Assembly: GCA_050084515.1 (NCBI GenBank) | Contig: CM114271.1 | Coordinates: 27,900,001-27,964,000, forward strand | Origin: Blasia pusilla | Taxonomy: Eukaryota | Direction: 5' to 3' | Length of the DNA: 64,000 bases | In this document: piece after piece, positions 10,901-61,700 of the stretch | Position numbering within the stretch: position 1 is the first letter of the stretch | How the letters are laid out: the number at the start of each line of letters is the position of its first letter | The notes under the pieces: model-generated | What the model saw: the letters and a program-made list of their open reading frames with translations, nothing else | Database searches by the model: none | Told to the model about the DNA's origin: nothing | Translations under genes and position numbers: made by a program

Positions 10901-12392
10901 CCCCTTCGGCAACCAGCCTTCGAGCTTCTACAGATGTTTTGAACCAAGGGAATGACGAATGACAAATCTGGTCACTGAGGGCTTGAATTCTCTGATGCAA
11001 GTAGCTCTACAACACGACACTAGGACTGACGACAATTCGCAGAGGGTGTCCACAACCAGAACTTACAATTTTCGTGGTAATCCCTTTGAGCTCGTGCAAC
11101 TTACGAGCCAATGTCACAGCAAGTTGTATGTTGGCATCGATGAACTCATCCGATGATCCCTGTCAGCAGACAGACGAGAAAAAAAAATTCAGAGAAAAAT
11201 ATACGTGCACGGTTGGCCCACTGGAAAGTTATGTTCAGCACATAAAAGAAAATTCATATGGATACCGATGTGACAAGGAAGATCGAAGATGTTCGCGATA
11301 AAAAAACCCAGGTAATACTTATGATAGCTCGACTAGAATTGATTTGTTTTGGTAACTTAAATTCATACCAAATCTTAACAGAATGCATGAGAAAAGTCCT
11401 CAACTCCTTAACCTTCGGCTGTTCCGCTATATCACGACATCTTCAAAAACATAAAGCAGAAAGTAAACAATTTCCTCGGAAAACTACGAGTTCGATTATG
11501 ATGGACACTGTTTTGCTGGTCCATACAATTGTGAACGAGCATCACTAACATCCAATTACACACTGGTTTGGAGAAGCTGGCAGCCGCACCTTGTAGCCTG
11601 ACACGCTGCTTGGCAGAGGTCTGAATCGAAAGTCCATGACAAGCATTAAGAGGAATAAATCAGAGTGTCAGTCGAGATCTCTGCGGGATTCAAAAAGAGT
11701 TCCGAAATCAACCAGAAACCACTCTCCCATCCACTGGGATGTCGTAGAACCATGTTGAACTGTGGCTACTTGAAGTTGAAAAACTTGACGAGAGCTTACG
11801 GGAATTCAACTTCCATTCGTAGCTTCCCCTCGTCGAGAGCATACGCCACAGAGTTCGCTGCGTCTGCATCAGCCACCGAAAAACTTTCTTTGTCTGAGAC
11901 TAGTCGGATGGAAATTGAATCTCAGCGGCCTCGTCTCACATCTCAAGTCATTCATTCATTAATTCGACGCAAGTAGAACGCAATATACAAGCAACGTCGC
12001 AACATTCTACTACGGAATTGAGGGTACTATGACGAAAATTTCCCACTTAGCACTGAATTCTCAACTCAACATGAACGGCACGAGAAATTACCGGTCACCA
12101 AGACATCATACGAAGCTGGCTTATAAACATCCACTCCAGCTGCGGCTGTGGATCCTTCCTCCACTTGTGCCGTTGCTCTAACGGTGCAACCGCACCAGCT
12201 CCGTCTCCTGATGCTCTCAGCTTTCATATGGCTCTGCTCACGCAATGTCGGCACTCTTCTTAAGGCTCCTGCGCCAAAACAAACTCCGCTCGGCCTCCAT
12301 TCCACAGCTTCCGTTACAACATCTCTCGCCACAGATCCACACACAGCAAGAGGCGAAACTCTCCCGATTCCGGTCGCTGCTGTGAGCGCCAT
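7975..12392 (-). CDS. LPA3: LOW PSII ACCUMULATION 3-like chloroplast protein (DUF1995), 13 exons
   Basis: Exons approx. 12092-12392, 11800-11863, 11590-11620, 11067-11159, 10552-10614, 10192-10303, 9586-9666, 9444-9502, 8987-9089, 8775-8835, 8478-8560, 8179-8259 and 7975-8034. Spliced product has a transit-peptide-like start, then [25 protein letters not shown]...[15 protein letters not shown]...[10 protein letters not shown]...[19 protein letters not shown]...[16 protein letters not shown]...[14 protein letters not shown], matching LPA3. Confidence 0.93.
9155..9282 (+). rRNA. rrn18: NUMT: 3' half of a mitochondrial tRNA, spacer and 5' ~70-85 nt of mitochondrial SSU rRNA (non-functional fragment in an LPA3 intron)
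   Basis: AGAGTTTGATCCTGGCTCAGAATGAACGCTAGCGATATGCTTAACACATGCAAGTCGAACGTTGTTTTCG at 9213-9282 is a plant-mitochondrial-type SSU 5' end. A perfect T-arm ATAGG-TTCAAAT-CCTAT lies at 9162-9178. Confidence 0.85.

Positions 12393-21446: not shown

Positions 21447-21644
<198 letters not shown>

Positions 21645-23530: not shown

Positions 23531-23620
<90 letters not shown>
23531..23620. repeat. (TC)~45 microsatellite
   Basis: Direct reading. Confidence 0.97.
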
Positions 23621-36200: not shown

Positions 36201-38473
36201 CCATCCAGACCAATAACTCGCTTTGGTGCCCTCTTTGGCCCTCAGTCCGGACGTAACTCAGGGTGCAAGCTGAAACACCTGGCACGTGTGCGATCGTACC
36301 TCTGACAATAGTCATACTGATAACCTCCTGGTGTAGCACCATCTCCTCCATCCTGAGGCACGCGACCATGATCATGACGAGTGCAATCGCGTTGATGATG
36401 AGCTCCACCACATGACCGACAAGTAATCGTAGGTGGTTGCTGCTGAGCCACATATGAAGATGCAGGTCTCCGTGGCACGGCCTCCTGGTATCCTCCCTGA
36501 CCTCGTGGTGCCACAGTTGACCTATCTCAGAGTCCACGTTGCTGGATTGGTGGTGCAGGAAATCGTGACTACTCTCGTCTAGAACCCATGTTGGCTACGC
36601 TCTCCTCCACCATGTTGTGGTCAATGTTCTCGGTGGTCCTAAAAATATCTCTCAACGTAGGGGAGGTGTTCATAAGAAGCGTCCCCCCCCCTCCTCCCCG
36701 CACCCGTGTCCACAGGGTCTGGCCCAGCATCGCGTACCATGAGTGGATAGCCTGAGCCTCTATCACCCCCTGAGTGACGTTGATCAACCGGTGCAAGCGA
36801 GTGTAAGCCTCACGCAAAATCTCACCCGAGTACCTCTGGAAGTCATGGATGCTCCGTAACTTCTCCGTCCGTACCCTCTGGTAGCTTGCCGCTCGTGGCC
36901 GTACGACACCATCTCGATCGCGGAGCCGCTCCTTCACTAAGGAGCATAGCGTGTGTATTGCTGATTGAGGAGAATATACCACGGCGTTTTGCATCCCTTT
37001 CCCTCGCTCGCATGATACTCGCTCATCATCAAGCGGCTACCAATCACAACATAGCAGAATAAAATGAAAATTCAAACACCATAACCCGAGATCACCTGCC
37101 ATCACTCGTTGATGATGAAACTGCGATGACGATAGCGGCCACAACAAAGTAGATGGTGGTAGCGCAAGTGAGAGAATCAACGGTCATTGTGGAAGACCGT
37201 CCACTTTAGAATGGTGGCAATGGAAACCAAAGGCGGATAACAGACGAATGCGGCTCTAAGCGGCGGTCGAAGGTCGACGGCGGACGGCGACGATAGACCA
37301 TTGACGGTGGGCCGTCGACAATGATGGTAAAGCGTCAATGGTTTGCCATTGACGGTGATGGTTGACTGTTGAAGGCGACGGCCACGTCCGGCGCGGCGGT
37401 TGGTTTAGGGTTTGAACAATTTTACCCTAAAAATCGCCTAACAATGGGAGTTTTGCAAAATTGGCCATAACTTTCTACTCGCAGCTCCAAATTGTGCACT
37501 CTCTGTTGCAAAACATGCACAACTTCACGATCTACGATGATGCTAAAAATTATTTTGAATTGGACCTTCCAATAAAAAACTGACATGGATTGTTGTAAAT
37601 CCCAATATCTCTTCTCCTACATAAATTTTGGCAACCCTTCCGCGCTGATTTCTCCCAACAAAAATGTAAAACCTATGAAAATACAAATCAGCAAGCTACA
37701 TGGTGGTCCCAAGAGTAGTGGCATGGGGCAACTTGTCCCCATACTCAATCCCTATAAAAAATTGGGCATCGATTGTGTGCGCCACTCTCACACACGAAAA
37801 ATCGACACACAAACGTCAAAACAACGCGGCTCTTGCTTCCGTGAGCACTCCCATGAGCCATGAAGTGGGGAACACGGTCCCCAACCTGCACCAAATATCA
37901 AGCAACCATCAAGCTCCCCCATGAAGCTCTCTCACCTTCTTATTGTCTTTTTGTAAAAATAAGGTGAAATCTCTCTTAACACCCTAGCTCTTTAATGTGT
38001 GCACTCTCACATGTCTGTCTCAATGTCCAACCAACCCACTCTCCTAATGAGAGGCTTGGGTTACACTCACAAGGCAAGCAAGACCATAGCTCCGCCACCT
38101 CCTGCCAAGAGGTTCAACAAAGAGAGAATGAGCTCTCAAGTTATCTCTCCTTGAGGTATATCCCTCCCCTCTCCCAAGCTCTTTCCATGGTAACATATGC
38201 TCCCAAGTCACCTCCTTGTCTCTTGACCTGATGTAGGAGGTCAAGGGCCACTTCCCAAAATATAAAATTGACCATATACTCAAAATGGTACTTACCTAAA
38301 ATAGAAGTTCATCAATATGGCTCCAAATGAGCCGAAACGAAGGGGAAACCTCCTCTCTCAGGGGAAACCTGCTTTCTCAGGTTTCCCCGGGCCTCAACAA
38401 GTCATCCTTGACCTCATGAGCCTGTCCTCCACTACTTGCGAGGCGCTCTACTAGATCTCACCGATCTATCATA
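33225..38473 (-). mobile_element. DNMT3/PHD gypsy family copy A, internally deleted (no MTase or RT) and 3'-truncated
   Basis: 5' LTR 37960-38473; gag remnant with CRSCGGAH and YCQRYDRTRARC knuckles; protease LLDSRAQP; protease joined directly to the RNase H tail near 34930; integrase core in ORF 33450..34154. Confidence 0.85.
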
Positions 38474-39321
38474 AAAGACGTGATACCTTACTTGCCTTCG
38501 TGTTCCATACTCCTCTATTTCTTCCTCCCTCCACCTCCACTCCCTCCTCCCTCATTGCTCCACTCATCCTTGCCTTGCCTTCCATCATGAACTATAAGTG
38601 TGGGTCCCATATCATAGAACCCATGTCCGTGGATATGTCAAGACTTGTCAGTCCATGTCTGTACTAAGGAAGGACTTGTCCGGTTTTGTGCAACCATGTC
38701 TGTCTTGGTATGTGTGAATGTCTCAAAGAGATATGCATTTACTCTTGGGATGAGATGCATAGCCTCTCACATCTAAATTCAATATAGAATTTCCATAACA
38801 AAGTGGGAAAGGGAGTGCCCAGAAACCCTATATATGTATAATCTTGTTGCGTGCATATATATTATTCATAACAGAAATATATGCTATCATCCATACAACA
38901 CATAAAACCCAAAAGCACACACAAATATGAAAACCAGATACATACACTATCATTTTTGAAACAAGACTCTCTCTCCCTCCTCTCTCTCTCTAAAATTGTT
39001 AAGATGGTCATACCAGAATTGTTCAACACATTCAATAGCCTTGATTCATTGCCCAAAGCTGTTGCATTGGTAAGTAATGTCTATTGAGGTTCCTAGTCAG
39101 GTAAAGTAGATGGTGTGATGAAGAGTTTCTTGGTTGACACTTGGAAGCTCCGCACGAAAATATTGTTTGGTCAGCACTCACACTATATGAGAGTGTCTCC
39201 CTCCTCTCATATGATATCTTATTCGCTTCTTCCTCTCTCTACACCCATCCCAGTCTCAAGCAGCGTCCAACCAGGGCGCAGGATCTATGGTTGCAAGACT
39301 ACAACAGACACTTTTTAATGA

Positions 39322-41258: not shown

Positions 41259-42287
41259 TGTTGCGACCCTCATAACCAAATGAACAACAAATAGGCACTA
41301 ATTAGAACATCAAAACTCTAGTGGACTCATGCTACGATGATCGCACTTTGGAGAGGCTTTTGGAAAGGTTTCTTGGAAAAGTCCAAGAGACGAAACGTGG
41401 AACACAGTTGTGTGTTTCATGCGTTAGTGGTCGTAACCAAGAAATTTAGACCAAACGCGAACTAAGACTTGAGATGAGTTGAATCTTGGAAGGTTGGTTG
41501 CCAAAGAGATGAGAACCAATTTTGGAACACGACTAGCGTTTGGAAATTTGACTGTGTTTTGGACCATAACGTTTAGCCCTGAGATGCATTCAAGATAAGT
41601 AAAGGCGCATTGGAATGCTTATCCGGAGACGCTTCCAATGCATCAAAGATCTTAGCAAACACATTAGTAGAGGTTGAGATATTGGCCCAAAAATGATTGT
41701 GAGAGCAATCAAGTTGAGGGCCAATCTGAGGGGCATGATTGTCTTTCCCTAAAGTTAGGGGAGGGTGGAGATCCCCAGAAGAAGTAGTAAGGGGGAGTCT
41801 CTCCAAGGAGTCTTGGAACACGAACCCCACCTTGAGCACCAAACGGCATCTCCAAAGCACGGGATGGAACGGGAGGTTGAGCTTGGAACTCAAAACCCAA
41901 AACTGATCGAAGAGAGTGGACTTCGTAAGCCACACTTGGATGCCAACCAGAGATTTATGTTTGTGACTTGCGGTTAGGGACTCATTGAATGCCCATTGGA
42001 CAACTGGAACCGCCAAGCACGAAACACCCTTTGAGGTTCCTGAAACCGACTATAAAGTCTATCCCAAGTCTTTTGAGATTTACATGTGTCATAAACTGCG
42101 AAACTAGGAAGGTTAAGCTTGATGAGAGGCCAAATAAAAAACTCAGCAAGTTAGAACCGCTGATTGATCCATACTCGACTCGCCCGAATGCGTGTTTGGA
42201 TGCAGATCAACGCTGAAAACCTGACCTACTGAACGCACGCTTCAGCAACAACAAAGATTATCGTTCAAGGAGAGTAGGCGCATGACA
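41259..42287 (+). repeat. Older solo LTR related to the chromovirus at 51158-58496
   Basis: Starts TGTTGCGACCCTCATAACCAAA (chromovirus sense: TGTCGCGACCCTCATGACCAAA) and ends GTTCAAGGAGAGTAGGCGCATGACA (GTTCAAGGAGAGTAGGGGCGCGACA). Flanks ccaag/ccacc may be a degenerate TSD. Confidence 0.8.
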
Positions 42288-42532
42288 CCACCCACAAGCC
42301 GTTTAACTTCTACTTGTGCTATCCTCAAGGCTTGCTTACCCTTTTGGTTCATCCTTATTTCAATAAATGGTCCCTCCCTTTTCTCCTTAGATGTGTCTCA
42401 ATGCACAAGCATATCATGACTAGCCGTGACCTGAGGCACAATCTATGGCTCTTGGCCATCTTGGTTTATTCCCTAAACTTCTTGCTCATCTTGACCTTTC
42501 TTTAGCAAATCACTTCGAAGAGTCACATCTCT

Positions 42533-43030
42533 TAGGATAGATCGGTGAGATCTAGTAGAGCGCCTTTATGAGTAGCGGAGGACAACTCAATTGGCTGAGG
42601 ATGACCTGCTGAGGCCCCGGGAAACATGAGAGAGCAGGTTTCCCCTTCGTTTCGGCTCATTTGGAGCCATATTGAGGAACTTAATATTTTAGGTAAGTAC
42701 TATTTTGAGTATATGACCAAATTTCTATTTTTGGTAAGTGCCCTTGACCTCCTACATTAGGTCAAGAGCCAAGGAGATGACTTGGGAGCATAGGTTACCA
42801 TGGAGAGAGCTTGGGAGAGGGGAGGGGTATACCTCAAGGAGAGAGAGCTTGAGAGCTCATTCTCTTTTGTTGAACCTCTTGGCATGAAGTGGCGGAGCTA
42901 TGGTCTTGCTTGCCTTGTGTGTGTAACCCAAGCCTCTCATTAGGAGAGTGGGTTTGGTTTGACATTGAGAGACACAAGAGAGAGTGCACACATGTAGGAA
43001 CTATAGTGTTGTGAGAGAGATTTGATCTTA
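42533..43030 (+). repeat. ~500-bp LTR of the DNMT3-gypsy family (homologues at 37960-38473 and 50095-50589, both minus)
   Basis: Three copies share sequence from TA(A/G/T)GATAGATCGG to (GAT/CAC)CTTA. It lies upstream of gag in A and B and just downstream of the integrase-PHD stop in C1. Confidence 0.8.
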
Positions 43031-44776
43031 CTTAACAAAGAGAGAATGAGAGAGTGAGAGAGCTTCATGGGGGAACTTGCTAGTCACTCACTGTTTTTGC
43101 ACCTTGGGGACCGTGTTCCTTGTTCAACGGCTCATGGGAGTGCTCACCGGAGCAAGTGTTGCTTTGATTATTCTTTGCATTTGCCGATTTTTTGTATGGA
43201 AGAGTGGCGCGTGGAAGCGCTGCCCAATTTCTGATAGGGATTGATTATGGAGGCGGGTTGCCCAATGCCGCTGCTCTGGGCATAGCTTGTTGATTTGTAT
43301 TTTTATAGGTTTTACATTTTCGTTGGGAGAAATCAGCACGGAAGCGCTGCCAAATTTTGTGTAGGAGAAAGAGACATTGGGCTTTACAACAGTTATTGTC
43401 ATTTTTTACTAGAATGTTCGATTCTAAATAGTTTTTGACGTTATTGTAGATCGTGAAGTTGTGCACGCTATGCAACAAAAAATGCATAATTTGGAGTTGC
43501 GAGCAAAAAGTCATGGTCAATTTTGCAAAACTTCCATTTCCAGGCGAGTTTTAGGGTTAAATTGTTCAAACCCTAAATCGGCCGCCTAGCGGGCGGCGGT
43601 CGTCGCCGCCATAGTCACCGCAAATGGTTTGCCATCAACAATCAACCATCACCATCAACGGTCCACCATCCATTGTCCACCCTTTGGTTGTCATTGCCGC
43701 CATTACGGAGTGGAGGGTCTTCCACGACGTTCGTTGATTCTATGACTTGCCTTGCCACAACGTACTTTGTTTTGGCCGCCACCGTCATCGCAGTTTTGTC
43801 GTCAACAAATGATGGTAGATGACATCTGGTTATGGTGTTTGAGTTTTGATTTCATGCTGCTATGTTGTGATTGGTTTCCACTCGACGACAGTCAAGTACC
43901 GTGCCGTGACGCCCGTAGCCGCAACGCGCCGCCGATTGCTGCGCCGTGCCGCTCGTGGCCGCACCGCACCGTCTCGATCACGGAACCGCTCCTTCACTAA
44001 GGAGCAAAGCGTGCGAATTTTTGATTGAGGAGGGTATGTTGCCGAGTGCCGCATATTGAGGAGGGTATGCTTTCCGAGTGCCGTGCTGCTTGTAGCCGTT
44101 CCGTGCCGCCAGTGCCGCATTGGACCGCTCGACCTGCACCACACATCGAGGAGGTTGAGCAGCGTCAATACGAGAGGAGTACGACTTGCTTATTGGAGGA
44201 GATGTCTTCACGACCGAGTTGGGGTCAAGATTTGCAGTTGTCGAGGAGCGACATCGACATTATTGTGAGGTTATCCATTCTGCTCTTTTGACCTGCACGT
44301 GTGAGGGATTTCTGAATATTGGGAAGTTATTTGGGATATTGGGTTTCGTGTTGATGCTAGGAGCATCGATGATGTATGGGTTAAGGGGACATAGACCTGT
44401 GGGATGTCCAGAGTTGAGGATGGTTTGTCGATGAGACGATACATCAGTGATTTTCCGCACCACGCTGCTTGTTGCCACACAACACACGTCTTAGTGAGAG
44501 AGTGTAGATTGAGTGCCGCATGTTTAGTTTGCGTGATTGAGGGATTACTCGCAAGATTGAGAGTGATCATATGAGAGGGGCACAAGGGCCATCACGGCAT
44601 CCTTTTAGGATTTTGAGAGGCAAGGTAGTGGACCTGATGGTAGCTCTAGAGAGTTTACGCGGAGTGGTGCGGGGTTTCGAGGGTCTCCACGTGAGAGACC
44701 ACCTCGATCTCAATCTGTGTCGTCTTCAGACAAGGGGTAGCATATAGAGGAGTGTGTTAGTGATCCACCGTATACA

Positions 44777-47449: not shown

Positions 47450-48380
47450 AGGGTATTCGGATGTTGGATCTCTTTGGAGGGATCACCACTGTGTTAGCTG
47501 CTGTTTTGCACTCAAGAGTGTGTGTGCAGCAATATCTGTATGTGGAGATTGATGATGTTGCAAGGCGCGCTTTACTTCACCATGTGGCACTTTTACGCCT
47601 CTTTTTTCCCGACTTGTTGTCTACGTCCGCCATTAAGGCTAGAGTTCCCTACCTAGGGACATTTCATTGTTGGGGGCGCAGGACTTGGATCGGGTAGGGA
47701 CCATAAACTTGGTCATTGCTGGTTGGCCATGTCAGGGCCAATCGAGTGATGGACAAGGTAGCGGGTTAGCTGACACTCGCTCTAGGTTGTTTTGTGAAAT
47801 GATGCGGATCTTGCGACATTTACAAGAGCATCAGTCTCGTTCTCCAGCATATATTTTGGAGAATGTGACAATTTTGGGCAATTCGAGGTCCCACGTGGTG
47901 ACAAGTGCACATCAAGTGCGCGCAAGGATCGGCCCGGTAGTGTTGTTAGATGCAACGAGTGTGGGTTCACGAGCACATCGCCCATGTCTTTGGTGGACCA
48001 ACTTGGTACCACATGAGATATTGCGGAGGGTTTATGCGAGAGTGGAGCATCCCTTCGATTTGTTGGTAGATTCTATATTGGATCCAGGCCATCGATCACA
48101 GGCAGTGAGGCATGATGATCGACCGCCGTGGACTATGGTCAACAAGATTGGCATGCCACGAGCCGCCTTTCCCACATTGGTGAGTTTTTCCTATGCATTC
48201 AAGGAGGCCGGACTTGGCTTGGTTTGGGATGACCATGTACAGAGGTTGGTGGAGCCCAACGCCGATGAGCGAGAGCAAGCGATGGGATTCCCCATAGGAG
48301 TGACGGTAGTACCGTCACTATCCGAGACATCACGACGTCATGTCTTGGGTCAGGCGATGGACCTGAACTGCTTGACATAG
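47450..48380 (+). pseudogene. DNMT3-like C5 cytosine methyltransferase domain inside pol (copy B, one frameshift near 47640)
   Basis: Motifs in canonical order: I IRMLDLFGGI, II YLYVEID, III DIS, IV LVIAGWPCQG, V GLADTRSRLF, VI YILENV, VII LLDA, VIII RAHRPCLWWTNL, IX EREQAMGFP, X SRRHVLGQAMD. Confidence 0.92.
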
Positions 48381-48689: not shown

Positions 48690-49962
48690 CGATGGAGACT
48701 TGGAAGCCAGATACGGACCCTAAGTTGACGGGAGGAGAGCGGCGTCGGATACACCAATTCCTTAGGAGTTATAGGAGCTGTTTTGCATTTAGTATGCATG
48801 ATTTGGATACATTGAAGGGTCCAGGGATCCGCATTGAGTTGTCGAGTGACACGCCAATCTTCCGACGACCCTACACAAACAATGACATGGAGAGGGCTCT
48901 GATTTAGAGTAGGAGCCAAGACTTGGTTGGAGCAGGACTAGTGGAGATGTTGCATGGAGAGTATGCATCTGCCATTGTCATGCCCGACAAGAAGGATGTG
49001 CATGGCAACTAGACGGATAGGCGAATGTGTGGAGATTACCGACCTATAAATTGGCAAACAAAGTCCGATATGTATGCCATGCCCACCCTTGAGGAGATCT
49101 TCGATGCAATTGGGCATGCAAAGGTCTTTAGTTCATTGGATTTGCGAGCCGGATACCTATCAGATTGGAGGACAGGCAGAAGAGGGCATTTTGGGGCATC
49201 AATCCTCATGGGAAGGATTGTTTGTACCAGTGGTCGTTCTTACCATTCGGGTTAAAGAACGCCCCGGCTGAGTTTCAGAGGGTCATGGATAGGATCTTGG
49301 TAGGTCTGGATTTTGCTAGGTGTTATATTGATGACATCATAGTCATTAGCGCTACGGTTGAGGAGCATGAGCGACATCTAGAGGAGGTATTTCGACAATT
49401 GCAGTTATATGGGCTAAAGCTATATCCAGGCAAGTGCAAGTTCTTCTACGACCAGATTGAGTACTTGGGTCATACAATATACCCTGGGGGCCTTGGTGTG
49501 CAACAGACAAAGGTAGAGGCTATTTCACGCATTCCACGCCCTACAGATGTGAGTCGAGTTCGTGCATTCATGGGATTGCCGAACTTCTATCGACGGTACC
49601 TCAAGGGTTTCAGTTCAATTGCGAAGCCGCTAACCTTGATGACCAAGGTGGATCAGGAGTGATACTCGGGGGATGAGCAAGAGAGAGCATTTCAGATGCT
49701 TAAGGACATATTGACGTCCGTACGCATATTGAGGAGACCGATCAGGGGTCGTCCTTTCTAGTTGCATACAAATTGGAGCATGTTGGGGCATCGAGCCATG
49801 CTCACCTAGCATGATGATGATGGTAGAGAGTTTGTGGTGGCTTATGCTAGTCACTCGAACAATGCTGCAGAGGCGAAGTATAGCTTGTATGAGGATGAGT
49901 GCTTGGCTGCAGTGTGGGCTGTCGCACATTTCAGATGTTATCTATTCGGCAATCCCTTTACC
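48690..49962 (+). pseudogene. RT and RNase H of copy B
   Basis: RMCGDYRPIN, FSSLDLRAGY, LPFGLKNAPAEFQRVMD, CYIDDIIV, IEYLGH, VVAYASHSN, ECLAAVWAVAHFRCYLFG; several premature stops. Confidence 0.9.
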
Positions 49963-50619
49963 ATGTTGTGCGCATACACATTGCTACACAACATACATCG
50001 TTGTCATCGAACACACACACAAACACACACAATCCCATGCTAACTCATGGCATCCATAGACAGAGGCGAGAAGTACCAAATATCTCCAAAATAATAAGAT
50101 CCAATCTCTCTCACAACACCATAGTTCTCACATATGTCCACTCTCACATGTCTGTCTCAATGTCAAACCAAACCCACTCTCCTAATGAGAGGCTTGGGTT
50201 ACACACACAAGGCAAGACCATAGCTCTGCCGCCTCATGCTAAGAGGTTCAACAAAGAGAGAATGAGCTCTCAAGCTCTCTCTCTTGGAGGTATACCCCCT
50301 TCCCTCTCCCAAGCCCTCTCAACGATAACATATGCTCGTAGGTCATCTCCTTGGCTCTTGACCTGCTGTAGCGGGTCAAGGGCCACTTCCCAAAGTGGAA
50401 ATTCAACTATCCCCAATATGGAAACTTACCCCAAATAGTAAGTTTTCTATATGGCTCCAAATAAGCCGAAACGAAGGGGAAACCTGCTCTCTCAGCTTTC
50501 CCAGGGCCTCAACAGGTCATCCTCGACCTCTTGGGCATGTCCTCCACTACTCGTGCAGACGCTTTGCTAGATCCCACCGATCTATCTTAATCCGAATCAA
50601 AATCTACCTAGTATCTCCT

Positions 50620-50760
50620 CTATATACATCTGAGACACATCCATCGTCCCCGAGGAATCCTAGTAAGAGGTGGCGTCAAACATGCCATATGCCAACCTCT
50701 CAAACATCCATCATAGACTAGCATCGTGGCCGCACCATGAGTAGAACCACACAACATACA
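50620..50760 (-). pseudogene. PHD finger at the integrase C-terminus
   Basis: CMLCGSTHGAATMLVYDGCLRGWHMACLTPPLTRIPRGRWMCLRC* (C4HC3 with one C>Y). Confidence 0.88.
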
Positions 50761-52153
50761 ACGCAAGCCTGCAGGAACTACTGTTGAGCTTGGATCTGCT
50801 GTACCATCAATGTTAGGAAGATGACATGGCGCACAATTACGCACATGGTCCTTCCATACCATACCATTGCGTCTCTCCAGGAAGAGAACACCGGATGGCA
50901 AAACGTCGCGCACTCTCAAGATAGTGCACCCTGCAGTCACATCCAACGTCGTCGGTGCCGTCTGCTACAAGTAGACATAATCTCCCTGATGAAACCTCCA
51001 AATAGTTGGTCGATAATCACCACCCGAATAGTCGCATACCTCAACGTATCCCGATGTTGCGCAATCGCCAAGTTCTCGAACGCAATGGGCATCACTCTCC
51101 AAAATAACTCCGCCCTTTGAGAACATGCTCGCATACATACATCTGGGTCATCAAGGTTGTCGCGCCCCTACTCTCCTTGAACGTCAATCTTTAGTGTTGC
51201 GGAAGCGTGCGTTCAGTAGGTCACGAACTCATCGCCGATCTGCACCCAAACACGCACTCTCGTTAGTCGGGTTTGGCCAACCGGTGTTCCAACCCACCGA
51301 GTCCTAAACTCGGCGTCTCATCAAGCTCAACCTTCCTTAGTTCCTAGCTCCCAACACATGGCAAGTCCTTCAAGACTTGGACGGACTTCTGGTTAGTCCA
51401 GGGGATCTCAAACGGCACTTGCACGCCTAGCGATCCCAACTGTTCAACGGTCCTCGTGTGAGTTCCGAACCGAGACCCAAGTAATTGAGTCGTGGCGTGA
51501 AATCCAAGAGGGATGTCTAAAATCGACTCAATGGACTTGGTGCAGGTTTTCCAACCCAACGCCCAAACTCGCGTTCCGTTCCATGCCCTTGAGCGCCCAT
51601 GGCGCCCAAAGTGGGGTTTGGGTTCCAAGCACTCTCGGAGACCTTCCCCTTACTAGTACTTCTGGGGTTCTCCAATAACCCCTCCCCTTTGGGAAAAGAG
51701 GTTCGGGCCCTTCATTGTGGCCCTCAACCCGACACCACTTACAGTCGTTTTGGGTTGTATCTCGGCCGCTGCTTATGCGTTTGCAGCGATCTTTAGTGCG
51801 TTTTGACCGGCTCTCCATAAGCTTTCCAACGCATCCTTATTTGCTCCAAACGCATCTTGGTACTAAAAGTTATGGCTAGAAATACAGTCAGAAACTCTCA
51901 AACGCAAGTGGCGTTCCAAATCCGGATCTTTCCTTTGGCAACCCACTTCCTAGACTCGACTTCTTTCAAGTCTCATTCGCGTTTGGTCCAGGTTTTTGAG
52001 TTGCGACCATCACATCTGAAACGCGACTTTCGCTCGCGTCTCGTCTCTTGTCTCCTCTTTGAGACAACTCCAACGCAAGAAACCATCTTAGCGTGAGTCC
52101 GCTAATGTTCCGATGTTCCGCTTGGCACTTGTTTGGTCATGAGGGTCGCGACA

Positions 52154-52167
52154 CTCACCCCTCTTTT
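52154..52167 (-). other. Polypurine tract of the chromovirus
   Basis: AAAAGAGGGGTGAG immediately before the 3' LTR. Confidence 0.85.
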
Positions 52168-52844
52168 AGAGTTTGATGCCCTCATCAACGCAAACCTTTA
52201 TTATGTCAAGTCTCCTGGGCAGCCTACCCCTTGACATTGAATTGCGTTCTGGTGGCTAACCCGCAATTCCTCTTAGTCTTTAGTTGTCGCTTTGCCCCAC
52301 TTAGAATTATTAGCCTCTCATCTTCGATAAGCCTGGACTAGTTCCAAGGAACTAACCTATCAAATAAGCTAACTAAGTGTGCAACCTTAGACTCTTTCGA
52401 CTCATTACTGTAAACATCACACCTGTTTACCTGGTCCACAAATCGTACTACTATTGGGTCGCTCTCGTATTCGACTTAGGCGCGTCACTAAGTTTACTTA
52501 TGTGGCCACAAGTAAGATCACCCCAAGCCCCAAGACAGACTTCATCTGCCCCGCCGACGCTAGGGCGAGCCCGAGTGTAATCCAACACAAGGTCCTGTTC
52601 TAGGTGCTTATCCACATACGAGCTCTCACCTCAAATACTCCTTGTCTGTCTTCTTGTCGTACATTCTAAGTCTATGATGAACGACTCATAGCCATGCACT
52701 ACCACATACAAATTGCAATCAACACTGGTATCGAATCTCCAAATCCATACACTCCTTTATTGCAACACTAGCATATTCTAGTTACAACGGCCTTCGGCCC
52801 AAGATTCCAGTGATTACAAGTCATGTCTCTAGCTTCTCCTCATA

Positions 52845-53270
52845 CTAACGTATGTGCTTCGCTTGTGTTCGCTTGAAGTCACACAACAACTCTTGCGCGT
52901 GTTCCAAATCCGCCTCCGCAATCCAAGTCGCCTCCTTCACATGGTAGCCCTTCCATTTTACCAAGTATTCATACTTGTTGGCCCGACGCCTCGAACGTAA
53001 GATGGTCTCCACCTCGAACTCCGGCTCCTCATTTACGATGACCAGGTGCGGTCTCACCACCTGTCTCCGCTCGAAACGTCCATTATCTTGAAGGTATTTC
53101 TTCAATAATGACACATGAAAGGTTGGGTGAATCTTGAACTCGTCCGGCAGCCTCAACGTATACACATCCTCAAACGGGTTTGCCACAATCACATACGGTC
53201 CAGCATACTTGGCAGACAACTTAGTAGACAACTCTTTCGGAAGAGTGAGATTCTTCACACTCAACCACAC
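52845..53270 (-). CDS. Integrase GPY/F module and chromodomain of the chromovirus
   Basis: KLSAKYAGPY...IHPTFHVSLLK...EFEVETILRSRRR...YLVKWKGY...ATWIAEADL. Confidence 0.9.
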   Translation of the reverse strand: MWLSVKNLTLPKELSTKLSAKYAGPYVIVANPFEDVYTLRLPDEFKIHPTFHVSLLKKYLQDNGRFERRQVVRPHLVIVNEEPEFEVETILRSRRRANKYEYLVKWKGYHVKEATWIAEADLEHAQELLCDFKRTQAKHIR

Positions 53271-53299
53271 TTGTTCTCCGACTTGAATCGATTTTGGCG

Positions 53300-56200
53300 C
53301 CGACTCTTGTTAGCATGCTTCACGTACCTCATTTGAGCCTTTGCAAGACTTAGCCTCGCGCTCACTTCTCGTTCTCGCATCTCTACCAACAAACTTTCTA
53401 CCGCCGCTTGTCGTGTTCGTGCCAATGTAGTACCCTTCGAAGGGCTAGATCAAGAGGCCCTTCGGCTCTCGTCCATTTGCCAGGAGAAACGGAGATTCTC
53501 CTATTGCGAATGCTTGGTCGAGTTGTAGCAAAGATTCCGCCATGCTCGACCACTTGACCCAATCGCGTTGATCAAGACGACATAATTCCTCAAATCTTGA
53601 TTCACGATAGAGTTTACCTTTTCGATCTGTCCATCCGTCGTGGGTGGAAAGCCGTCATGAAACTCAGCTTGGTCTTAAACCTTCAACAAGTGCTTCGAAA
53701 AGCATGGTAAACTTTGGATCCCGATCTGAAACAATGCTCCTCGGCAAACCATGAGCACGCCACCACTATCGAGGAATAGTTCGCGTCAGATACGCCGTTC
53801 ATGGAATCCACCGTCGGCACGAATCTCACCAACTTGCTAAACCGATCAACAATCACAAGTATAGCGTTGTATCCCAGATTCGGAAGACTCGTGATAAAAT
53901 CCATACTCACACTTTGCAAGGGTCCTTCGGGATCGGCAAGGGATGCAACAAGCCCTGTTTCTTATCATAAGAGACTCTATTCGCTAAGGAGTCACATGGT
54001 CTTCACATATTGAGCAACATCCTCCTTCATAATGGGCCAAAAGAACCGCCGACAGAACACCTAGCGAGATTTCTCTCCTTTATGTCCGCCAAGGGCCCGT
54101 CGTGACATTCCGCTAACACCTTGGTTCGATTCCCGCCTTGCCCTACATAGATCCTACTCTGTTTGAACCTTAGTAAACCGTGCCTCAAACTTATGTTGGC
54201 CACCTTCTCAACCCCGCTTCAACTTCCTCGGTATTCCCTCGCTTGAGCATCCTTCATATATCCTTCACGAATCCTTCTCTCCGGATGTGTTTCCTTAGGG
54301 AACATTGCTCTCAAAACTGTGTCGTCGATGGCATGTGTTCCTCCTTGCGACTTAACGATCTGGAATCACATTATCTTTACCTGGCTTGTGGATCAACTCT
54401 ACATCCATCAGCAAGGTATCATGCCACCATGATTGTTTTGGTGTCACTCGATCCTCGGTCTCAAAATACTTGAGTGATATATTATCGGTGAATACTCGAG
54501 TCTGTGGAGCCCTAGATAATGCCGCCACTTCCTCAAGCAATGTACCACCGCATGAACAACTCTTTTCGTGAGTAGGCCATCTCCTTTCAGATCGCTAAGC
54601 TTCTTGCTCTCATATGCCACCGGTCTTCCTTCTTGCACCAACATTCCTGCAACCGCGAAATCACTAGCATCGGTATGCACTTCGAACGGTTTGTCAAACT
54701 TCGGCACCTTTAACACTAATTCCTGCGATAGAATCTGCTTCACTCGGGTTGAATGCCTCATTAACTTCCTGGGTCCAAGTCGTGTTGGCAAACTTTGCCG
54801 TCCAATCCGTGAGAGGTCTCACAATTCCCGAAAAGTTTTTTACATAAGTACGGTAAAATTGCACAGCACCTATGAACCTCCTCATCCCCTTTACAGTGGA
54901 TGGGGGTTCCCACTCGGAAATCGCTTTTACCTTTTCCATGTGTGGACTGACGCCATCTGCACTGACCACGTGACCCAAGAATTTGATCTTACTCAAACCA
55001 AATTCGCTCTTCTCTACATTTGCATACAGCTGATTTGCCCTTAGCTTAGACAAGACCGCTCTCACATGTCGAACGTGCTCCTCTAGTGACTTCGAATAGA
55101 TAAGTATATCATCGATATAGATGATAACATACTCATCCATTTCCTTGTGAAAAATGGAGTTCATCAATGTGGTGAACGTCGGAGGCGCGTTACATAGACC
55201 GAAAGGCATCACTACAAACTCAAAGGAACCGTATCTCGTCCTGCACGCAGTCTTCTCACATCTGCCTCGGCAATCCAAATCTGGTAATATCCTGACTTCA
55301 AGTCAATCCTACTGAAATATCTCGCGCCTGCCAGCCTATCAAAGAGATTATCTATCCTTAGAAGAGGATAATTGTTCCGAACCACCACTTTGTTCAATGC
55401 ATGGTAATCAACACACAGCCTCATCTTTCCATCCTTCTTCTTTACAAAGAGAACAGGTGCTCCATAAGGTGACTTGCTAGTCCTAATGTAACCCTTTTCC
55501 AAGAGCTCACTTAACTGCTTTTTCAACTCAAGAAGTTCCTCCTGATTCAACCTATATGGTGCTTTTGAAGGCGGTTGGGAACCGGGTATGATCTCTATCT
55601 TATGATCTACGGCTCTATGCGGCGGCAATTCAGTCGGAAGCTCATTTGTCAAGACATCCTCAAACTCCTTGACCACTTCCTGGAGTGGTTCTGGGATTCC
55701 CCTTGAAGCAGCGTCCTGATCTCTGCGTATACTGCTTGTAGCCTCCTCCACTTGTCTCATCAAGCAGAGAAATCCATCCTCCAACTCAGTCATGCTCCTC
55801 CTTGTGATCGAGTTCACCAACTCCATCTTCGCTGGAACCTCACGGACCAACCGCACTCAGAATCGTTTGCCTTTTAGCAAGACGCTCAACCTCAATGGTC
55901 GGGCGTCTTAACTCCACCTCATACGCATCTAGGAATGTATTCCCCAAAACTCCGTCAATGCCGTCCATTTATACATCTGTGAAATTCTCCTTCAACTCGA
56001 ATACCCGCATCCCCTCTTGTCAAACCCAAGACCAAATCAGAAGTCCGATGAGACTTGCCTCCTGCAAATCCCACTCGATGGGCTCGTCCGCCTTAGAGGT
56101 AGATGCCCCAGTTCCTTCACGATTCTCGGGCTTAGGAAGGAGTGCGGCACTGTATCCACGAGCAACAACACATCGCGATCAGCAATCTTGGATCTTAGGT

Positions 56201-57345
56201 ACACCAAATTGTGCGCCCTCTTGGTGACTTGAAGGGACGTCTCCATATCGCCCGCCAACAGATGCTTAGCAGCAAACGCAATCATACTCCCATTACTAAC
56301 CTTCGGTTTCAAACACCCTTTCGACAGGTGACCCGGTTCGCCATAGTTGTAGCATACGACCTTGCCGTTCCCTGTCTTTGAGTGTTGTCCTCCTTTCGGC
56401 CGCATGAAGTTCCACTCGTTTCTTTGCCTGCCGGCATTTACGACTCCTGGTTCGTGTTGGCCCCCACTCCGCCTCTTTTGAACGCCTCCTTATTTTTCGA
56501 CTTCTTCGAAAAAACTTTTGACTCGAAGGGTTTCTGGGTTTGGACCTCATCGTCCCCAATCCGCTCCGCTAGATTCAGAAGGTCCGCACAGGTCTCTGGC
56601 AACGTCGGCATTCGGTAAAGGGCCTTCTCAGCGCTCGGCTTGAGTCCACTAATGAAGATAGCCTTCTTCGCGTGCTCATCCATCTTCGGACTAGAAGTCG
56701 GGCCGCACTAAACTCCCTCACATACGCGCTTAAGGAACCACTCTGCCGCATCCGCACGCATTCCACCGTGTCACGCAACCCTTGGTACTCCGGAGTGAAC
56801 CAATCCCCAATCAACTTCTTGAACTCCTCCCAACTCAGAGGTGACTCACCGCCCAAATATTCCTCTCGTTGAGCGGTCCACCATTGCAGAGCATGATCCT
56901 TAAGGAAAGTAACGGCTACCGTCACCTTGTCCTGCTCAGCAGCCTTCTGCGCCTTGAAGTACAGTTCCAGTTCCGTAAGGAAATCCTTCACTTTCCGCGA
57001 GCGCCCCACTCCAGTAAATGGCGTGGGCAGGTTCGTCTTGCAGAGCTTTTTGCCCGCACTCGGGTTTCGAGTGGCCTCTAACTCCGCAATCCGCTTGCTT
57101 TGCTGGGACATCTGCTCCACCAACACCTTCAACAAGTCCAACGTCTGGCTCGACTCCGTCCTTTCCCCTGAGTTTGGGCCCACTGGCCCCGCGGAAGGAG
57201 TCGCCACTGGGACGTCCTCACGACTGGCGTTCAGCTCTTCGGGAGTCTCCGACTCCTCTATAGCTTCACGGTCCGGCATTGGTTCCTCTCTCGGTTCACG
57301 TCGCTTGATTCGGCGCTTCTTGGGTTGTTCTCCCTCGATCGCCAT
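53300..57345 (-). pseudogene. gag-pol of the chromovirus, frameshifted
   Basis: Gag ORF 56575..57351, CYNYGEPGH knuckle, LLVDT protease, [41 protein letters not shown]. Confidence 0.9.
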
Positions 57346-57480
57346 CTCCAAGCCAACTCACTCAGATCTCCTCCTCGTTTCTTGCGTCCCTCCTTGAGCG
57401 TCCGAGTCTAGCCGCTACCTTGAAATTTCCCAAGCATCCGGCTGATCCCACGACCCCAAGTTGTCGCTCACCAAGGATAA

Positions 57481-57492
57481 GCTCTGATACCA
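57481..57492 (-). other. Primer binding site (initiator tRNA-Met) of the chromovirus
   Basis: TGGTATCAGAGC 2 nt inside the 5' LTR boundary. Confidence 0.92.
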
Positions 57493-58543
57493 CTTGTCGC
57501 GCCCCTACTCTCCTTGAACGTCAATCTTTAGTGTTGCGGAAGCGTGCGTTTAGTAGGTCACGAACTCATCGCCGATCTGCACTTAAACACACACTCTCGT
57601 TAGTCAGGTTTGGCCAACCGGCGTTCCAACCCACCGAGTCCTAAACTCGACGTCTCATCAAGCTCAACCTTCCTTAGTTCCTAGCTCCCAACACATGGCA
57701 AGTCCTTCAAGACTTGGAACAGACTTCCTGGTTAGTCCAGGGATCTGAAACGGCACTTGCACGCCTAGCGATCCCAACTGTTCAACGGTCCTCGTGTGAG
57801 TTCCGAACCGAGACCCAAGTAATTGAGTCGTGGCGTGAAATCCAAGAGGGATGTCTAAAATCGACTCAATGGACTTGGTGCAGGTTTTCCAACCCAACGC
57901 CCAAACTCGCGTTCCGTTCCATGCCCTTGATCCGCCCCGCGGCGCCCAAAGTGGGGTTTGGGTTCCAAGCACTCTTGGAGACCTTCCCCCTTACTAGTAC
58001 TTCTGGGGTTCTCCAATAACCCCTCCCCTTTGGGAAAAGAGGTTCGGGCCCTTCATTGTGGCCCTCAACCCGACACCACTTACAGTCGTTTTCGGGTTGT
58101 ATCTCGGCCGCTGCTTATGCGTTTGCAGCGATCTTTAGTGCGTTTTGACCGGCTCTCCATAAGCTTTCCAACGCATCCTTATTTGCTCCAAACGCATCTT
58201 GGTACTAAAAGTTATGGCTAGAAATACAGTCAGAAACTCTCAAACGCAAGTGGCGTTCCAAATCCGGATCTTTCCTTTGGCAACCCACTTCCTAGACTCG
58301 ACTTCTTTCAAGTCTCATTCCGCGTTTGGTCCAGGTTTCTGAGTTGCGACCATCACATCTGAAACGCGACTTCTCGCTCGCGTCTCGTCTCTTGTCTCCT
58401 CTTTGAGACAACTCCAACGCGCAAACCATCTTAGCATGAGCCCGCTAATGTTCCGATGTTCCGCTTGGCACTTGTTTGGTCATGAGGGTCGCGACAAAGG
58501 TCCTGCATCTCACCAACATCTCGATGAATGGCCGCAGGTAAAT

Positions 58544-58730
58544 CTTAGCAATAGTCCTTGCAGGCTTGCGGTGTATGTTGTGTGGTTCCGCTTGTGGTGC
58601 AGCCACTATACTAGTCTGTGATGGGTGTTTGAGAGGATGGCATATGGCATATTTGACACCACCTCTCACTAGGGTTCCTCAAGGATGATGGATGTGTCCC
58701 AGATATACATAGAGTAGGTAGTTCTACATT
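58544..58730 (+). pseudogene. Inverted second copy of the integrase PHD finger
   Basis: Plus strand LRCMLCGSACGAATILVCDGCLRGWHMAYLTPPLTRVPQG*WMCPRY lies between two minus-strand integrase segments. Confidence 0.85.
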
Positions 58731-61700
58731 CCAAGTTCTCGAATGCCATGGGCATCACTCTCCGAAACAACTGAGCCTATGGAGAACATGCTCGCATCCA
58801 TACATTTGGGTCATCAAGGTCCAGCACCTCACCAACATCTCGACGAATGGCTGTAGGTAAATCTAGCTCTCGGCCATAAAGTAGCAAGTACGGTGAAAAT
58901 TACGCTAAGGATGCCTTCTTGCTGAATCTGTATCCCATCGCCAACTACCGCAACTGGAGGTCCCAATCTCCTAGGTGACCTCTCTGCAAGCCATACTTGC
59001 ATAAACCCCTCTTCACCGTTTGCACAACTCTCTCGGCTAATCCATTCGCCTCGGGATGATCTCGCAAAGTTGTGCGGTGGTCGATCAGTGCCTGATTACA
59101 CAAGGCCTGGAACTCACTGCGAAATTTGCTACCTTGGTCTGTCAACACCTCAACCGGTGCACCATAATGACTCAGCACTCTGTCAAGGAAGGCATAAGCC
59201 ACTCCCTCACTTGCTTTGTCAGGCAATGCTACCAACTCGATCCACTTCGAGAAGTACTCGACCATCACCAACACATAACGATTGTGATCCTCCGTCAAAG
59301 GCAAAGGTCTGGCAAAATCCAAACCCCATCTATACCCTAAGCCCATGATTGGTAATGGATGCAATTGTGGAGTCGGAGCATTGAACGATGCTCAGACCCG
59401 ATCACACACCATGCACCTGGCAATAAATTGCTGAACGTCAGTCTGCATGCCTCACCACCAATACTGAATCTGGAGCAAGTTGTACGTCCACTTCATCCCA
59501 AAGTGACCCAACTCCTTGTGGGCATGTTGCAGTAGATGTGCTCTTTGTGAAGGATGCGGCACTACGCATACTCTACCATCCTCCGAAACCCTCAAAACAT
59601 GTGTCCCCTCCCAACGGAACCGTCTGGCCCGCTGTAGGATCTGATCCCGCTCTCTAGCATCCACGGTGCTCGCAACGCTGCTAGTACGAAGGTACTCCAA
59701 GACTACTCCATCATCATGAATATCTCGGCCACCTATCGTCTCTTCAGTGGCCTCGGGATCCAAGGACTCTCCACTAGACCTCGCCATCGAAGTCTCCACA
59801 CTTTGGCTCTCCAAAGCCAACATGCCTAAATAGGCTGACGCGTGCCATCCTGGCACTGACTCCTCATCACTCTCTCCATGCCATCGAGCTCTAGTCGCAT
59901 CTCGCTGACTCGGGCATGGGTTACGACTCAACCCATCTGCATCCTGGTTGAGCGTCCCAGGTCTATGTACCACATGAAAATCATACTCCTGCAACAACAG
60001 AGCCCATCTCGAAAGCTTCCCTGTAAGCTTGTCGGACTCCATCAACCACTTCAGTGGTTGATGATCAATGAAGATGGTAAAGGGATTTCCGAATAACTAA
60101 CACCTAAAATGTGTGACAGCCCACACTTCAGCCATGCACTCATCCTCATACGAGTTGTACTTCATCTCTGCAGCGTTGTTCGAGGGGCTAGCGTAAGCCA
60201 CCAGGAACTCTCTACCCTCATCATCATGTTGGGTGAGCACCGCTCCAAGCCCTAACATGCTCCAATCTGTGTGCAACTGGAAAGGAAGCCCCCTCATCGG
60301 TCTCCTTAATATGGGCGCGGACGTCAACCTGTCCTTGAGCATCTAAAATGCTTGCTCGTGCTCATCCCCCTAGTGCCACTCGTGATCCACCTTGGTTAGC
60401 AAGGTTAGCGGCTTCTCAATCGAACTGAATCCCTTGACGTATCGCCGATAGAAGTGTGCCAATCCCATGAATGCACGAACATGGCTCACATCTATAGGGC
60501 GTGGAATGCGTCAGATAGCCTCTGCCTTCGTTTGCTGAACACCAAGGCCCCCTGGATATATCGTATGACCCAAGTACTCAATCTAGTCGTAGAAGAACTT
60601 GCACTTGCTTGGATGTAGCTTCAGCCCATGTAATTGCAATCGTCGAAACACCTCCTCTAGATGTCGCTCATGCTCCTCAACCGTGGCGCTAATGACTACG
60701 ATGTCATCAATATAACACCTAGAAAAATCCAGAACAGCCAAGATCCTATCCATGACCCTCTGAAACTCAGCCCGAGCGTTCTTTAATCCAAATGGTAAGA
60801 ACCGCCAATGGTACAAACAATCCTTCCCGTGAGGATCCATGCCCCAAAATACCGTCTTCTACCTATCCTCCAATCTGATAGGTAGCTGATGGTATCCAAC
60901 TCGCAAATCCAATGAACTGAAGACTTTTGTGTGACCAATCGCATCAAAGATCTCGTGAGGGATGGGCATGGCAGACCTATCGGACTTCGTCTACCGATTG
61001 ATAGGTCGGTAATCCCCACACATCCGCCTATCCGTCCAGTTGCCATGCACATCCTTCTTGGCACGCATGACAGTGGCAGATGCATACTCTCCATGCGACA
61101 TCTCCACTTGTCTTGCTCCGACCAAGTCATGGCTCCTACTCTGAATCAGAGCCCTCTCCATATCACTGTACCTGTAGGGTTGTTGGAAGATCCGCGTATC
61201 ACTCAACAACTCAATGCGCATCCCCGGTCCCTTCAGCATACCCAAATCCTCCATGCTAAAAGCAAAGCAACTCCTATAACTCTTGAGGAACTGATGTATC
61301 CGGCGCCGCTCTCCTCCTTTCAACTTAGGGCCCATATATGGCTCCCAAGTCTCCATCGTGACTACGATAGGACTCTCTGGCATGGGTATCGGTGGTTGCT
61401 ATGGTGCAACCTTGTCTCGAACAACAACACTTGGCCGCTCTCCTACAGCCAACTGCAAACTCTGATCTCCTCCACGTGCAGTGCCCAGAACGATGCTCGA
61501 TGCTGTGGCTATCATCTCCTGGCGTACATGCAAAACATCCCAAGAAGTCCAAGGGTATCTCTCTTGATCTCCCCTAGTGTGTAGATCTCCTCGGGTCTCG
61601 CCCCCGGCCAGTGACTCCACCGTCTCGGTAGGCATGGGGCTCACCAACGCAACCGTTGTGATCAGTCGCGATCTCATACGGCGCTGCTCATCCACTCCCA

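Follow-up and report, generated by a model that had tools for sequence, protein, structure and literature searches.

The 64,000-nucleotide (nt) stretch of the Blasia pusilla genome analysed here, hereafter the window (GenBank assembly GCA_050084515.1, contig CM114271.1, positions 27,900,001 to 27,964,000), contains three decayed copies, A, B and C, of one Ty3/gypsy-type retrotransposon family, as delineated by self-BLAST and Pfam (Table 1). Tf1-like self-priming is the best reading of positions 43034-43050, which adjoin the 5' terminal repeat of copy B. This segment is probably a primer binding site (PBS) at which the 5' end of the element's own RNA would prime minus-strand DNA synthesis; the transcription start, the cut and the priming are what we infer from sequence. 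We favour this reading because the paired site lies where a PBS must be, because its partner lies at the RNA 5' end predicted from a TATA-like box and because the two members of the pair change together between lineages. The clade also carries split direct terminal repeats while encoding an integrase, which is more surprising than the self-priming.

The reverse complement of the candidate site, AACAAAGAGAGAATGAG, is CTCATTCTCTCTTTGTT. As the initial annotation of this stretch had stated, the exact 17-mer is present inside the repeat, on the minus strand of both copy A and C1, the latter being a repeat of copy C. The same annotation had described a 1-nt deletion in the copy B target, a TATACC located 28 nt upstream of that target, a decayed site in copy A and the lack of a TGG-type PBS after the 5' long terminal repeat (LTR). 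All of these are found in the sequence. Copy A retains 13/17 letters of the site, and no TGG-type site occurs at the end of the copy B repeat, the first TGG after the repeat being at 43068, 35 nt away. Two statements needed adjustment. The site is indeed next to the repeat, though not at a fixed distance of 3 nt, since the copy B repeat ends at 43031-43033 and the gap is 0-3 nt. The proposed duplex of ~14-17 nt holds as a 17-nt exact match with A and C1, with 16 nt as the usual complement in the family (see below).

The nested unrelated LTR element in the window serves as a control. At a distance of 2 nt from its LTR it carries TGGTATCAGAGC (57481-57492, read as the reverse complement), which we take to be the initiator-tRNA site usual in plants. 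In this genome, a normal PBS is therefore easily recognised. The repeat of the present family is rich in GAGAG runs, and its complementarity was compared with that of dinucleotide-preserving shuffles, the complement being sought against the 30 nt around the repeat end. A complement of at least 15 nt was obtained in 0/5000 shuffles for repeat C1 and in 0/5000 for repeat A. The longest one, 14 nt, occurred once with repeat A; a separate rerun with C1 gave 12 nt.

Reads of the same species were placed on 42300-43500 at 80% likeness or more, using one whole-genome shotgun run (X19, ~1% of the run) and three RNA runs (X20-X22). The family is very abundant in the genome: genomic depth is ~5000 on the repeat and ~1450 immediately inside the element. 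A jump in depth at 42523 and loose read ends before 42522 mark the start of the copy B repeat. Position 43034 is a T in 1240/1306 DNA reads (95%) and in 115/115 RNA reads, and the C missing after 42865 in copy B is present in 3762/5122 DNA reads (73%). With this T and the restored C in most reads, the usual complement is therefore 16 nt long, CTCATTCTCTCTTTGT pairing with ACAAAGAGAGAATGAG. No further majority difference is seen in 42856-42871 or 43035-43050 among the variants listed (40 of 347). The 16-nt complement, the majority state, is also the ancestral one; the 17th pair and the 1-nt deletion are both private to copy B. Family RNA is strongly sense-stranded in the three RNA-seq runs, and the family is therefore transcribed.

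An exact 20-mer of the repeat has no match in metagenome contigs. A profile of the reverse transcriptase (RT) region retrieved 80 such contigs (numbered L002 and so on). Wherever the contig is long enough, tblastn places a DNMT domain ~1.5 kb before the RT and a PHD finger ~2.2 kb after it, down to 40% RT identity. Three further lineages with 5' ends were obtained, groups 1, 2 and 3, and the layout DNMT3, RT, integrase, PHD is common to all. In group 1 (L002, L004, L009, L028 and L003; RT 65-75% identical), ACTCAAAGAACTATGTT is the exact reverse complement of AACATAGTTCTTTGAGT and overlaps the last base of the repeat. AACATAGTTCTTTGAGT is located 176 nt before the repeat end; the geometry matches the 175-178 nt of the window, with a different sequence. 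In group 2 (RT 40-46%; 12 distinct 5' ends), AATTCTAGAAAAACTA pairs with TAGTTTTTCTAGAATT, as in L055, and a conserved GTATAAAAGG precedes the start of TAGTTTTTCTAGAATT by 30-31 nt (by 34 in two loci). In group 3, which comprises L021, L017 and a second copy in L041, the partner of AATCACCAAAAG is CTTTTGGTGATT, found 30 nt after a TATAAT. In the relatives, the TATA box (TATAAAAG, TATAAT or TAT(G/A)AAG) precedes the lineage's own segment by 26-31 nt, and by as much as 34 nt in two loci.

Across the four lineages, a site is complementary to its own lineage's repeat over 12-17 nt and to the repeats of the other lineages over 5-8 nt. Measured from the end of the repeat, the start of the target is 124-178 nt upstream and the PBS is at -3 to +4 nt. 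Dinucleotide shuffles with a complement of the observed length numbered 0/5000 for L002, 0/5000 for L055 and 11/5000 for L021. The group 2 count leaves out L044 and L056, which have the same sequences as L049 and L057, as well as L064, L043 and L068, which give fragment matches only; L014 and L015 contribute a 3' end only. Also left uncounted are L016, L072 and the 921-bp repeats in L044/L049, which represent other or nested elements and have no complement. Unconstrained duplex folding in group 2 produced spurious AU/GU-rich duplexes and was replaced by counts of exact complements at the homologous position.

Changes on the two sides of the pair are coordinated. Relative to L002, the group 1 member L003 shows two compensatory changes, each affecting both sides of the pair (UA to CG, GC to AU). 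In group 2, a G-to-A change in the target of L038 is matched by a C-to-T change in its PBS. In the proposed register 92.9% of the cells are paired in group 1, as compared with 30-48% when the partner is slid. In predicted RNAs running from the target to the PBS, the helix between 5' end and PBS closes 5/5 folds, the window site being among these helices; as the RNA ends were chosen by us, the support is weak. Nucleotides 2-12 are paired with the PBS at a probability of at least 0.9 in 3/5 folds. In the L021 fold the probability is 0.77 at nt 12. In the L049 fold the first three nucleotides are unpaired and pairing sets in from nt 4-5 (0.03-0.07 at nt 2-3, 0.72 at nt 4). The self-priming proposal of the initial annotation is supported by this complementarity across copies and lineages: the family majority keeps both segments, the three other lineages pair with their own repeats, and compensatory changes occur. 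Of all the evidence, the comparison between lineages carries the most weight.

In the proposed mechanism, transcription would start ~30 nt downstream of the TATA-like box, at 42856 or at most 3 nt from it. The first 13-16 nt of the RNA would fold back over the ~175-nt R-U5 region and pair with the site adjoining the repeat. Where the duplex ends, the RNase H of the element would then cut the RNA, and the 3'-OH so released would prime minus-strand DNA, as in Tf1. If the Tf1 scheme applies, plus-strand strong-stop synthesis would copy the primer, so that the PBS would be reset to the RNA 5' end at each cycle. Such copying would account for the joint change of PBS and repeat in every lineage, and self-priming for their co-evolution.

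Several observations weigh against this proposal. RNA molecule starts do not pile up at 42856-42860 or elsewhere in the repeat in runs X20-X22, and the RNA/DNA depth ratio drops across the proposed start instead of rising. Of the RNA reads at the beginning of the repeat, nearly all extend upstream into element sequence, which identifies them as read-in at 3' copies. The variant listing covers 40 of 347, and minority variation inside both segments falls outside it. The shuffle control within group 1 is not significant by itself (81/500, 5 sequences). At least 11 uninterrupted Watson-Crick pairs with the element's own repeat are seen in only 8/20 individual 5' ends. The other 5' ends are decayed. 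Among them, copy A keeps 5 pairs and copy B, compared with its own repeat, 10 plus 6; a 14-nt deletion has removed the target of L028, and most of the PBS is missing in L059 and L061. The related copies are old and dead. Finally, the split repeats imply that later replication is non-canonical, so that Tf1 is perhaps an incomplete model. The Tf1 model should therefore be confined to the first step; the case for minus-strand priming is unaffected by the split repeats.

The long-range pairing might have been selected for another role, either closing R-U5 for packaging or dimerisation or masking signals of the 5' copy, with priming achieved otherwise, possibly in the manner of other split-repeat retroelements. 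We regard this as unlikely. Its appeal comes from the missing pile-up at the proposed start and from the DIRS/PAT-like split direct repeats, by which replication in the clade is not fully Tf1-like. Yet the paired site is found at the 5' repeat end, the position of a PBS, in 4/4 lineages, the region holds no other candidate PBS, with the nearest TGG in the window as distant as stated above, and the partner segment begins at the start predicted from the TATA box.

Binding of a host small RNA to the site, be it a tRNA internal region, a tRNA half or another RNA, with the match to the repeat being secondary, is very improbable. Half-tRNA priming does exist in plant copia lineages, as described in PMC6317226. 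With ARAGORN, the window and 50 of the 80 related loci yielded no tRNA gene. A conserved host RNA would keep the PBS constant, whereas the four lineages have four PBS sequences, each matching its own repeat. That the PBS varies together with the repeat of the same element speaks against priming by a conserved host RNA, and there is no TGG at the repeat end. As for chance complementarity in a GA/CT-rich, low-complexity repeat, the abundance of GAGAG runs makes it worth naming, but it is effectively refuted by the 0/5000 shuffles in three lineages and by the recurrence of the feature at the same position with other sequences.

Self-priming apart, the terminal repeats of the clade have the layout A1-PBS-internal-PPT-B1-A2-B2 (PPT, polypurine tract), although a DDE integrase is encoded. 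In L002, the 112-113 nt that follow the 3' repeat duplicate the 112-113 nt that precede it, with 94% identity. The duplication of B is also present in 16/17 group 2 loci (the exception being L062), in L014 and L015, and in group 3 (L017, L041); the length of B is about 112-180 nt in the clade. A B segment before A1 is absent in 7/7 full elements. A G-run polypurine tract directly precedes B1. At the A2/B2 joint, the end of the repeat is fused directly to the start of B. The B1/A2 joint is a palindrome in groups 1 and 2, CATGACAG followed by CTGTCATG, formed from TG...CA termini. Exact 4-bp duplications at the start of A1 and the end of B2 are observed in L002 (AAGG), L033 (ACCT) and L035 (ATAA), that is in 3/7 full elements, and are imperfect or unclear in the other four.

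In the window, only the A2-B2 end of this layout is present: the B segment of copy C follows C1. Over its last 27 nt, this segment agrees, but for 2 mismatches, with what stands before the repeat in most genomic reads and in nearly all RNA reads. Another reading of C1, a solo repeat with ATTTTG at its flanks, fits less well than the B1-A2-B2 layout of the relatives, in which ATTTTG is the start of B.

Since the polypurine tract precedes B and the PBS follows A, an LTR composed of B+A, hence B-A-internal-B-A, would be expected from canonical reverse transcription. The integrated form is a circular permutation of this canonical product. The A2/B2 joint looks like a 2-LTR circle junction. Tentatively, the integration substrate might be a molecule that contains a circle junction and that the DDE integrase opens at a palindromic att site in its interior, so that the ends of reverse transcription would differ from those used by the integrase; we see this as a possibility with the odds against it. 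Self-priming would then be the first step of a permuted cycle. A symmetric cut should also give A-B-A-internal-B, which is seen in 0/9 5' ends and weakens the proposal. If true, this replication mode would be undescribed for integrase-bearing LTR elements. The question raised is how an integrase-bearing element keeps split direct repeats, and the 80 contigs bear on it.

When the copies are combined, the gene order of the family is a gag-like region, DNMT, RT, RNase H, integrase and a C-terminal PHD finger. The gag-like region has no Pfam match. The integrase is of the DDE type (Pfam rve and Integrase_H2C2). The name "DNMT3-gypsy" used in the initial annotation is fair, since 26/26 PDB sequence matches of the DNMT piece are DNMT3A/B/C. 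Pfam finds no chromodomain at the C-terminus of copy C, where a PHD finger (PF00628) is located instead, and close relatives with a full pol likewise have PF00628, not PF00385. Closest to the RT are liverwort proteins, those of Calypogeia fissa (76%) and Marchantia polymorpha (71-74%), and some of them have DNMT and PHD domains. Among the nearest protein matches outside the clade, at 45-47% identity, some bear a chromodomain. Copy C appears to be inserted into the RT of copy B near 49964-49967.

Table 1 Coordinates of the family copies and of the features discussed (window positions unless a contig is given)
Feature	Copy	Position	Strand	Basis or remark
Family copy	A	38483 to ~33227	-	5' repeat present, without 3' end
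Family copy	B	42523 to ~49967	+	5' repeat present, truncated within RT
Family copy	C	beyond 64000 down to 49964	-	split by unrelated LTR element at 51158-58496
Proposed self-primer binding site (PBS)	B	43034..43050	+	AACAAAGAGAGAATGAG, adjoins repeat
Proposed RNA 5' end (self-primer)	B	42856..42871	+	CTCATTCTCT-TTTGTT, 1-nt deletion
TATA-like TATACC	B	42828..42833	+	28 nt upstream of complementary segment
Intact 17-mer in 5' repeat	A	38116..38132	-	sequence match
Decayed PBS	A	37939..37955	-	TACAAAAAGACAATAAG, 13/17 letters
5' terminal repeat (A1)	B	42523..43033	+	self-BLAST, alignment with repeats of A and C
5' repeat	A	38483..37953	-	holds intact 17-mer
Repeat C1, 3' copy (A2)	C	50092..50590	-	intact 17-mer at 50266..50250
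B2 segment after A2	C	49964..50091	-	reads and layout of relatives
Split direct repeats in relatives, examples		L002:10238-10805; L033:8706-9335		
A2-B2 end in the window	C	49964-50590	-	
DNMT3-like cytosine methyltransferase domain	B	47643..48377	+	Pfam PF00145, E 5.9e-10
Reverse transcriptase fragment	B	49132..49659	+	Pfam PF00078, E 1.3e-22
C-terminal PHD finger and stop codon	C	50623..50964	-	Pfam PF00628, E 1.8e-8

The LTR element nested in copy C (51158-58496, minus strand) has 1005-bp LTRs that are 97% identical, with TG...CA ends, and is flanked by a 5-bp duplication, AAGGT (51153-51157 and 58497-58501). Beside it, a 90-bp direct duplication of integrase-end sequence is observed (51068-51157 and 58731-58820, 88% identity). 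Region 58502-58820 also holds an inverted PHD-coding fragment (58549-58714 against 50618-50783, 86% identity), a rearrangement that is unexplained. Just upstream of copy B, at 41428-42287, are inverted fragments related to the LTR of the nested element, with 72-77% identity. A comparable nesting occurs in L044/L049, in which another LTR element (921-bp repeats, 5527-6438 and 10502-11418) is inserted in the RT of a group 2 copy. A duplication of ~75 bp of the host element at its flanks is reminiscent of the 90-bp duplication in the window. Elsewhere in the window, self-BLAST shows a perfect short-period microsatellite at 21451-21641, with an inverted copy 2 kb away at 23531-23620.

The split repeats have their counterpart in another order. 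The tyrosine-recombinase retrotransposons DIRS, PAT and Ngaro have an A1-internal-B1-A2-B2 layout. The present clade shares the split direct repeats and differs from the DIRS order by its DDE integrase and by the 4-bp target duplications of 3/7 full elements. A described element of similar make-up is KnitGypsy-Dnmt3 of Klebsormidium nitens, which combines a DNMT3 domain with a pol of gypsy type (de Mendoza et al. 2018, PMC5890265), to which the legend of Fig. 4 in that article attributes the repeat structure of a DIRS element and a typical Gypsy domain composition. By this description, the two share a DNMT3 domain in a pol of gypsy order (RT-RNase H-integrase) and an A-coding-B-A-B layout; in contrast, the proteins closest to the window RT are from liverworts. 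The main text of PMC5890265 contains no mention of a PBS or of primer binding. Our literature searches returned no paper on split-repeat gypsy elements or on liverwort DNMT-gypsy elements, and no further use of the name KnitGypsy.

As regards priming, the reference system is Tf1, whose primer duplex is 11 nt long; that of the clade is longer, 13-17 nt. In Tf1 and Tf2 of Schizosaccharomyces pombe and in Tj1 of S. japonicus, no tRNA serves as primer, and a PBS beside the 5' LTR is complementary to the 5' terminus of the mRNA of the element itself, as described in PMC4600332. Titles in the reference list of that article indicate RNase H cleavage of the RNA duplex in Tf1/Tj1. The site of the present clade likewise adjoins the 5' repeat and is complementary to the element's own repeat. 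Unlike Tf1 and the sushi chromoviruses, the clade has a C-terminal PHD finger and a DNMT3 domain, without a chromodomain match, and its terminal repeats are split (A...B-A-B) rather than being two equal LTRs.

Among plants, self-priming is the mode predicted for 12% of the LTR elements surveyed by Neumann et al. 2019 (PMC6317226), namely for Tcn1 chromoviruses of mosses and club-mosses and for the TAR lineage of Ty1/copia. These are also plant LTR elements without a tRNA-type PBS that are predicted to self-prime; the present clade differs from them by a PHD finger in place of the chromodomain, by its DNMT3 domain and by its split repeats. The words Marchantia, PHD and methyltransferase do not occur in the main text of PMC6317226. 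The self-priming mechanism itself is already known, and the DNMT3/PHD-gypsy clade would be a new carrier of it. If the reading proposed here is true, no host tRNA would be needed, and one handle of the host on the element, such as the inhibition of priming by tRNA fragments, would presumably be gone. Self-priming would then reach beyond Tf1/sushi chromoviruses and the two predicted plant lineages to a separate, old clade, with RT identity down to 40% among its members and its own DNMT3 domain and PHD finger, and very abundant in this genome.

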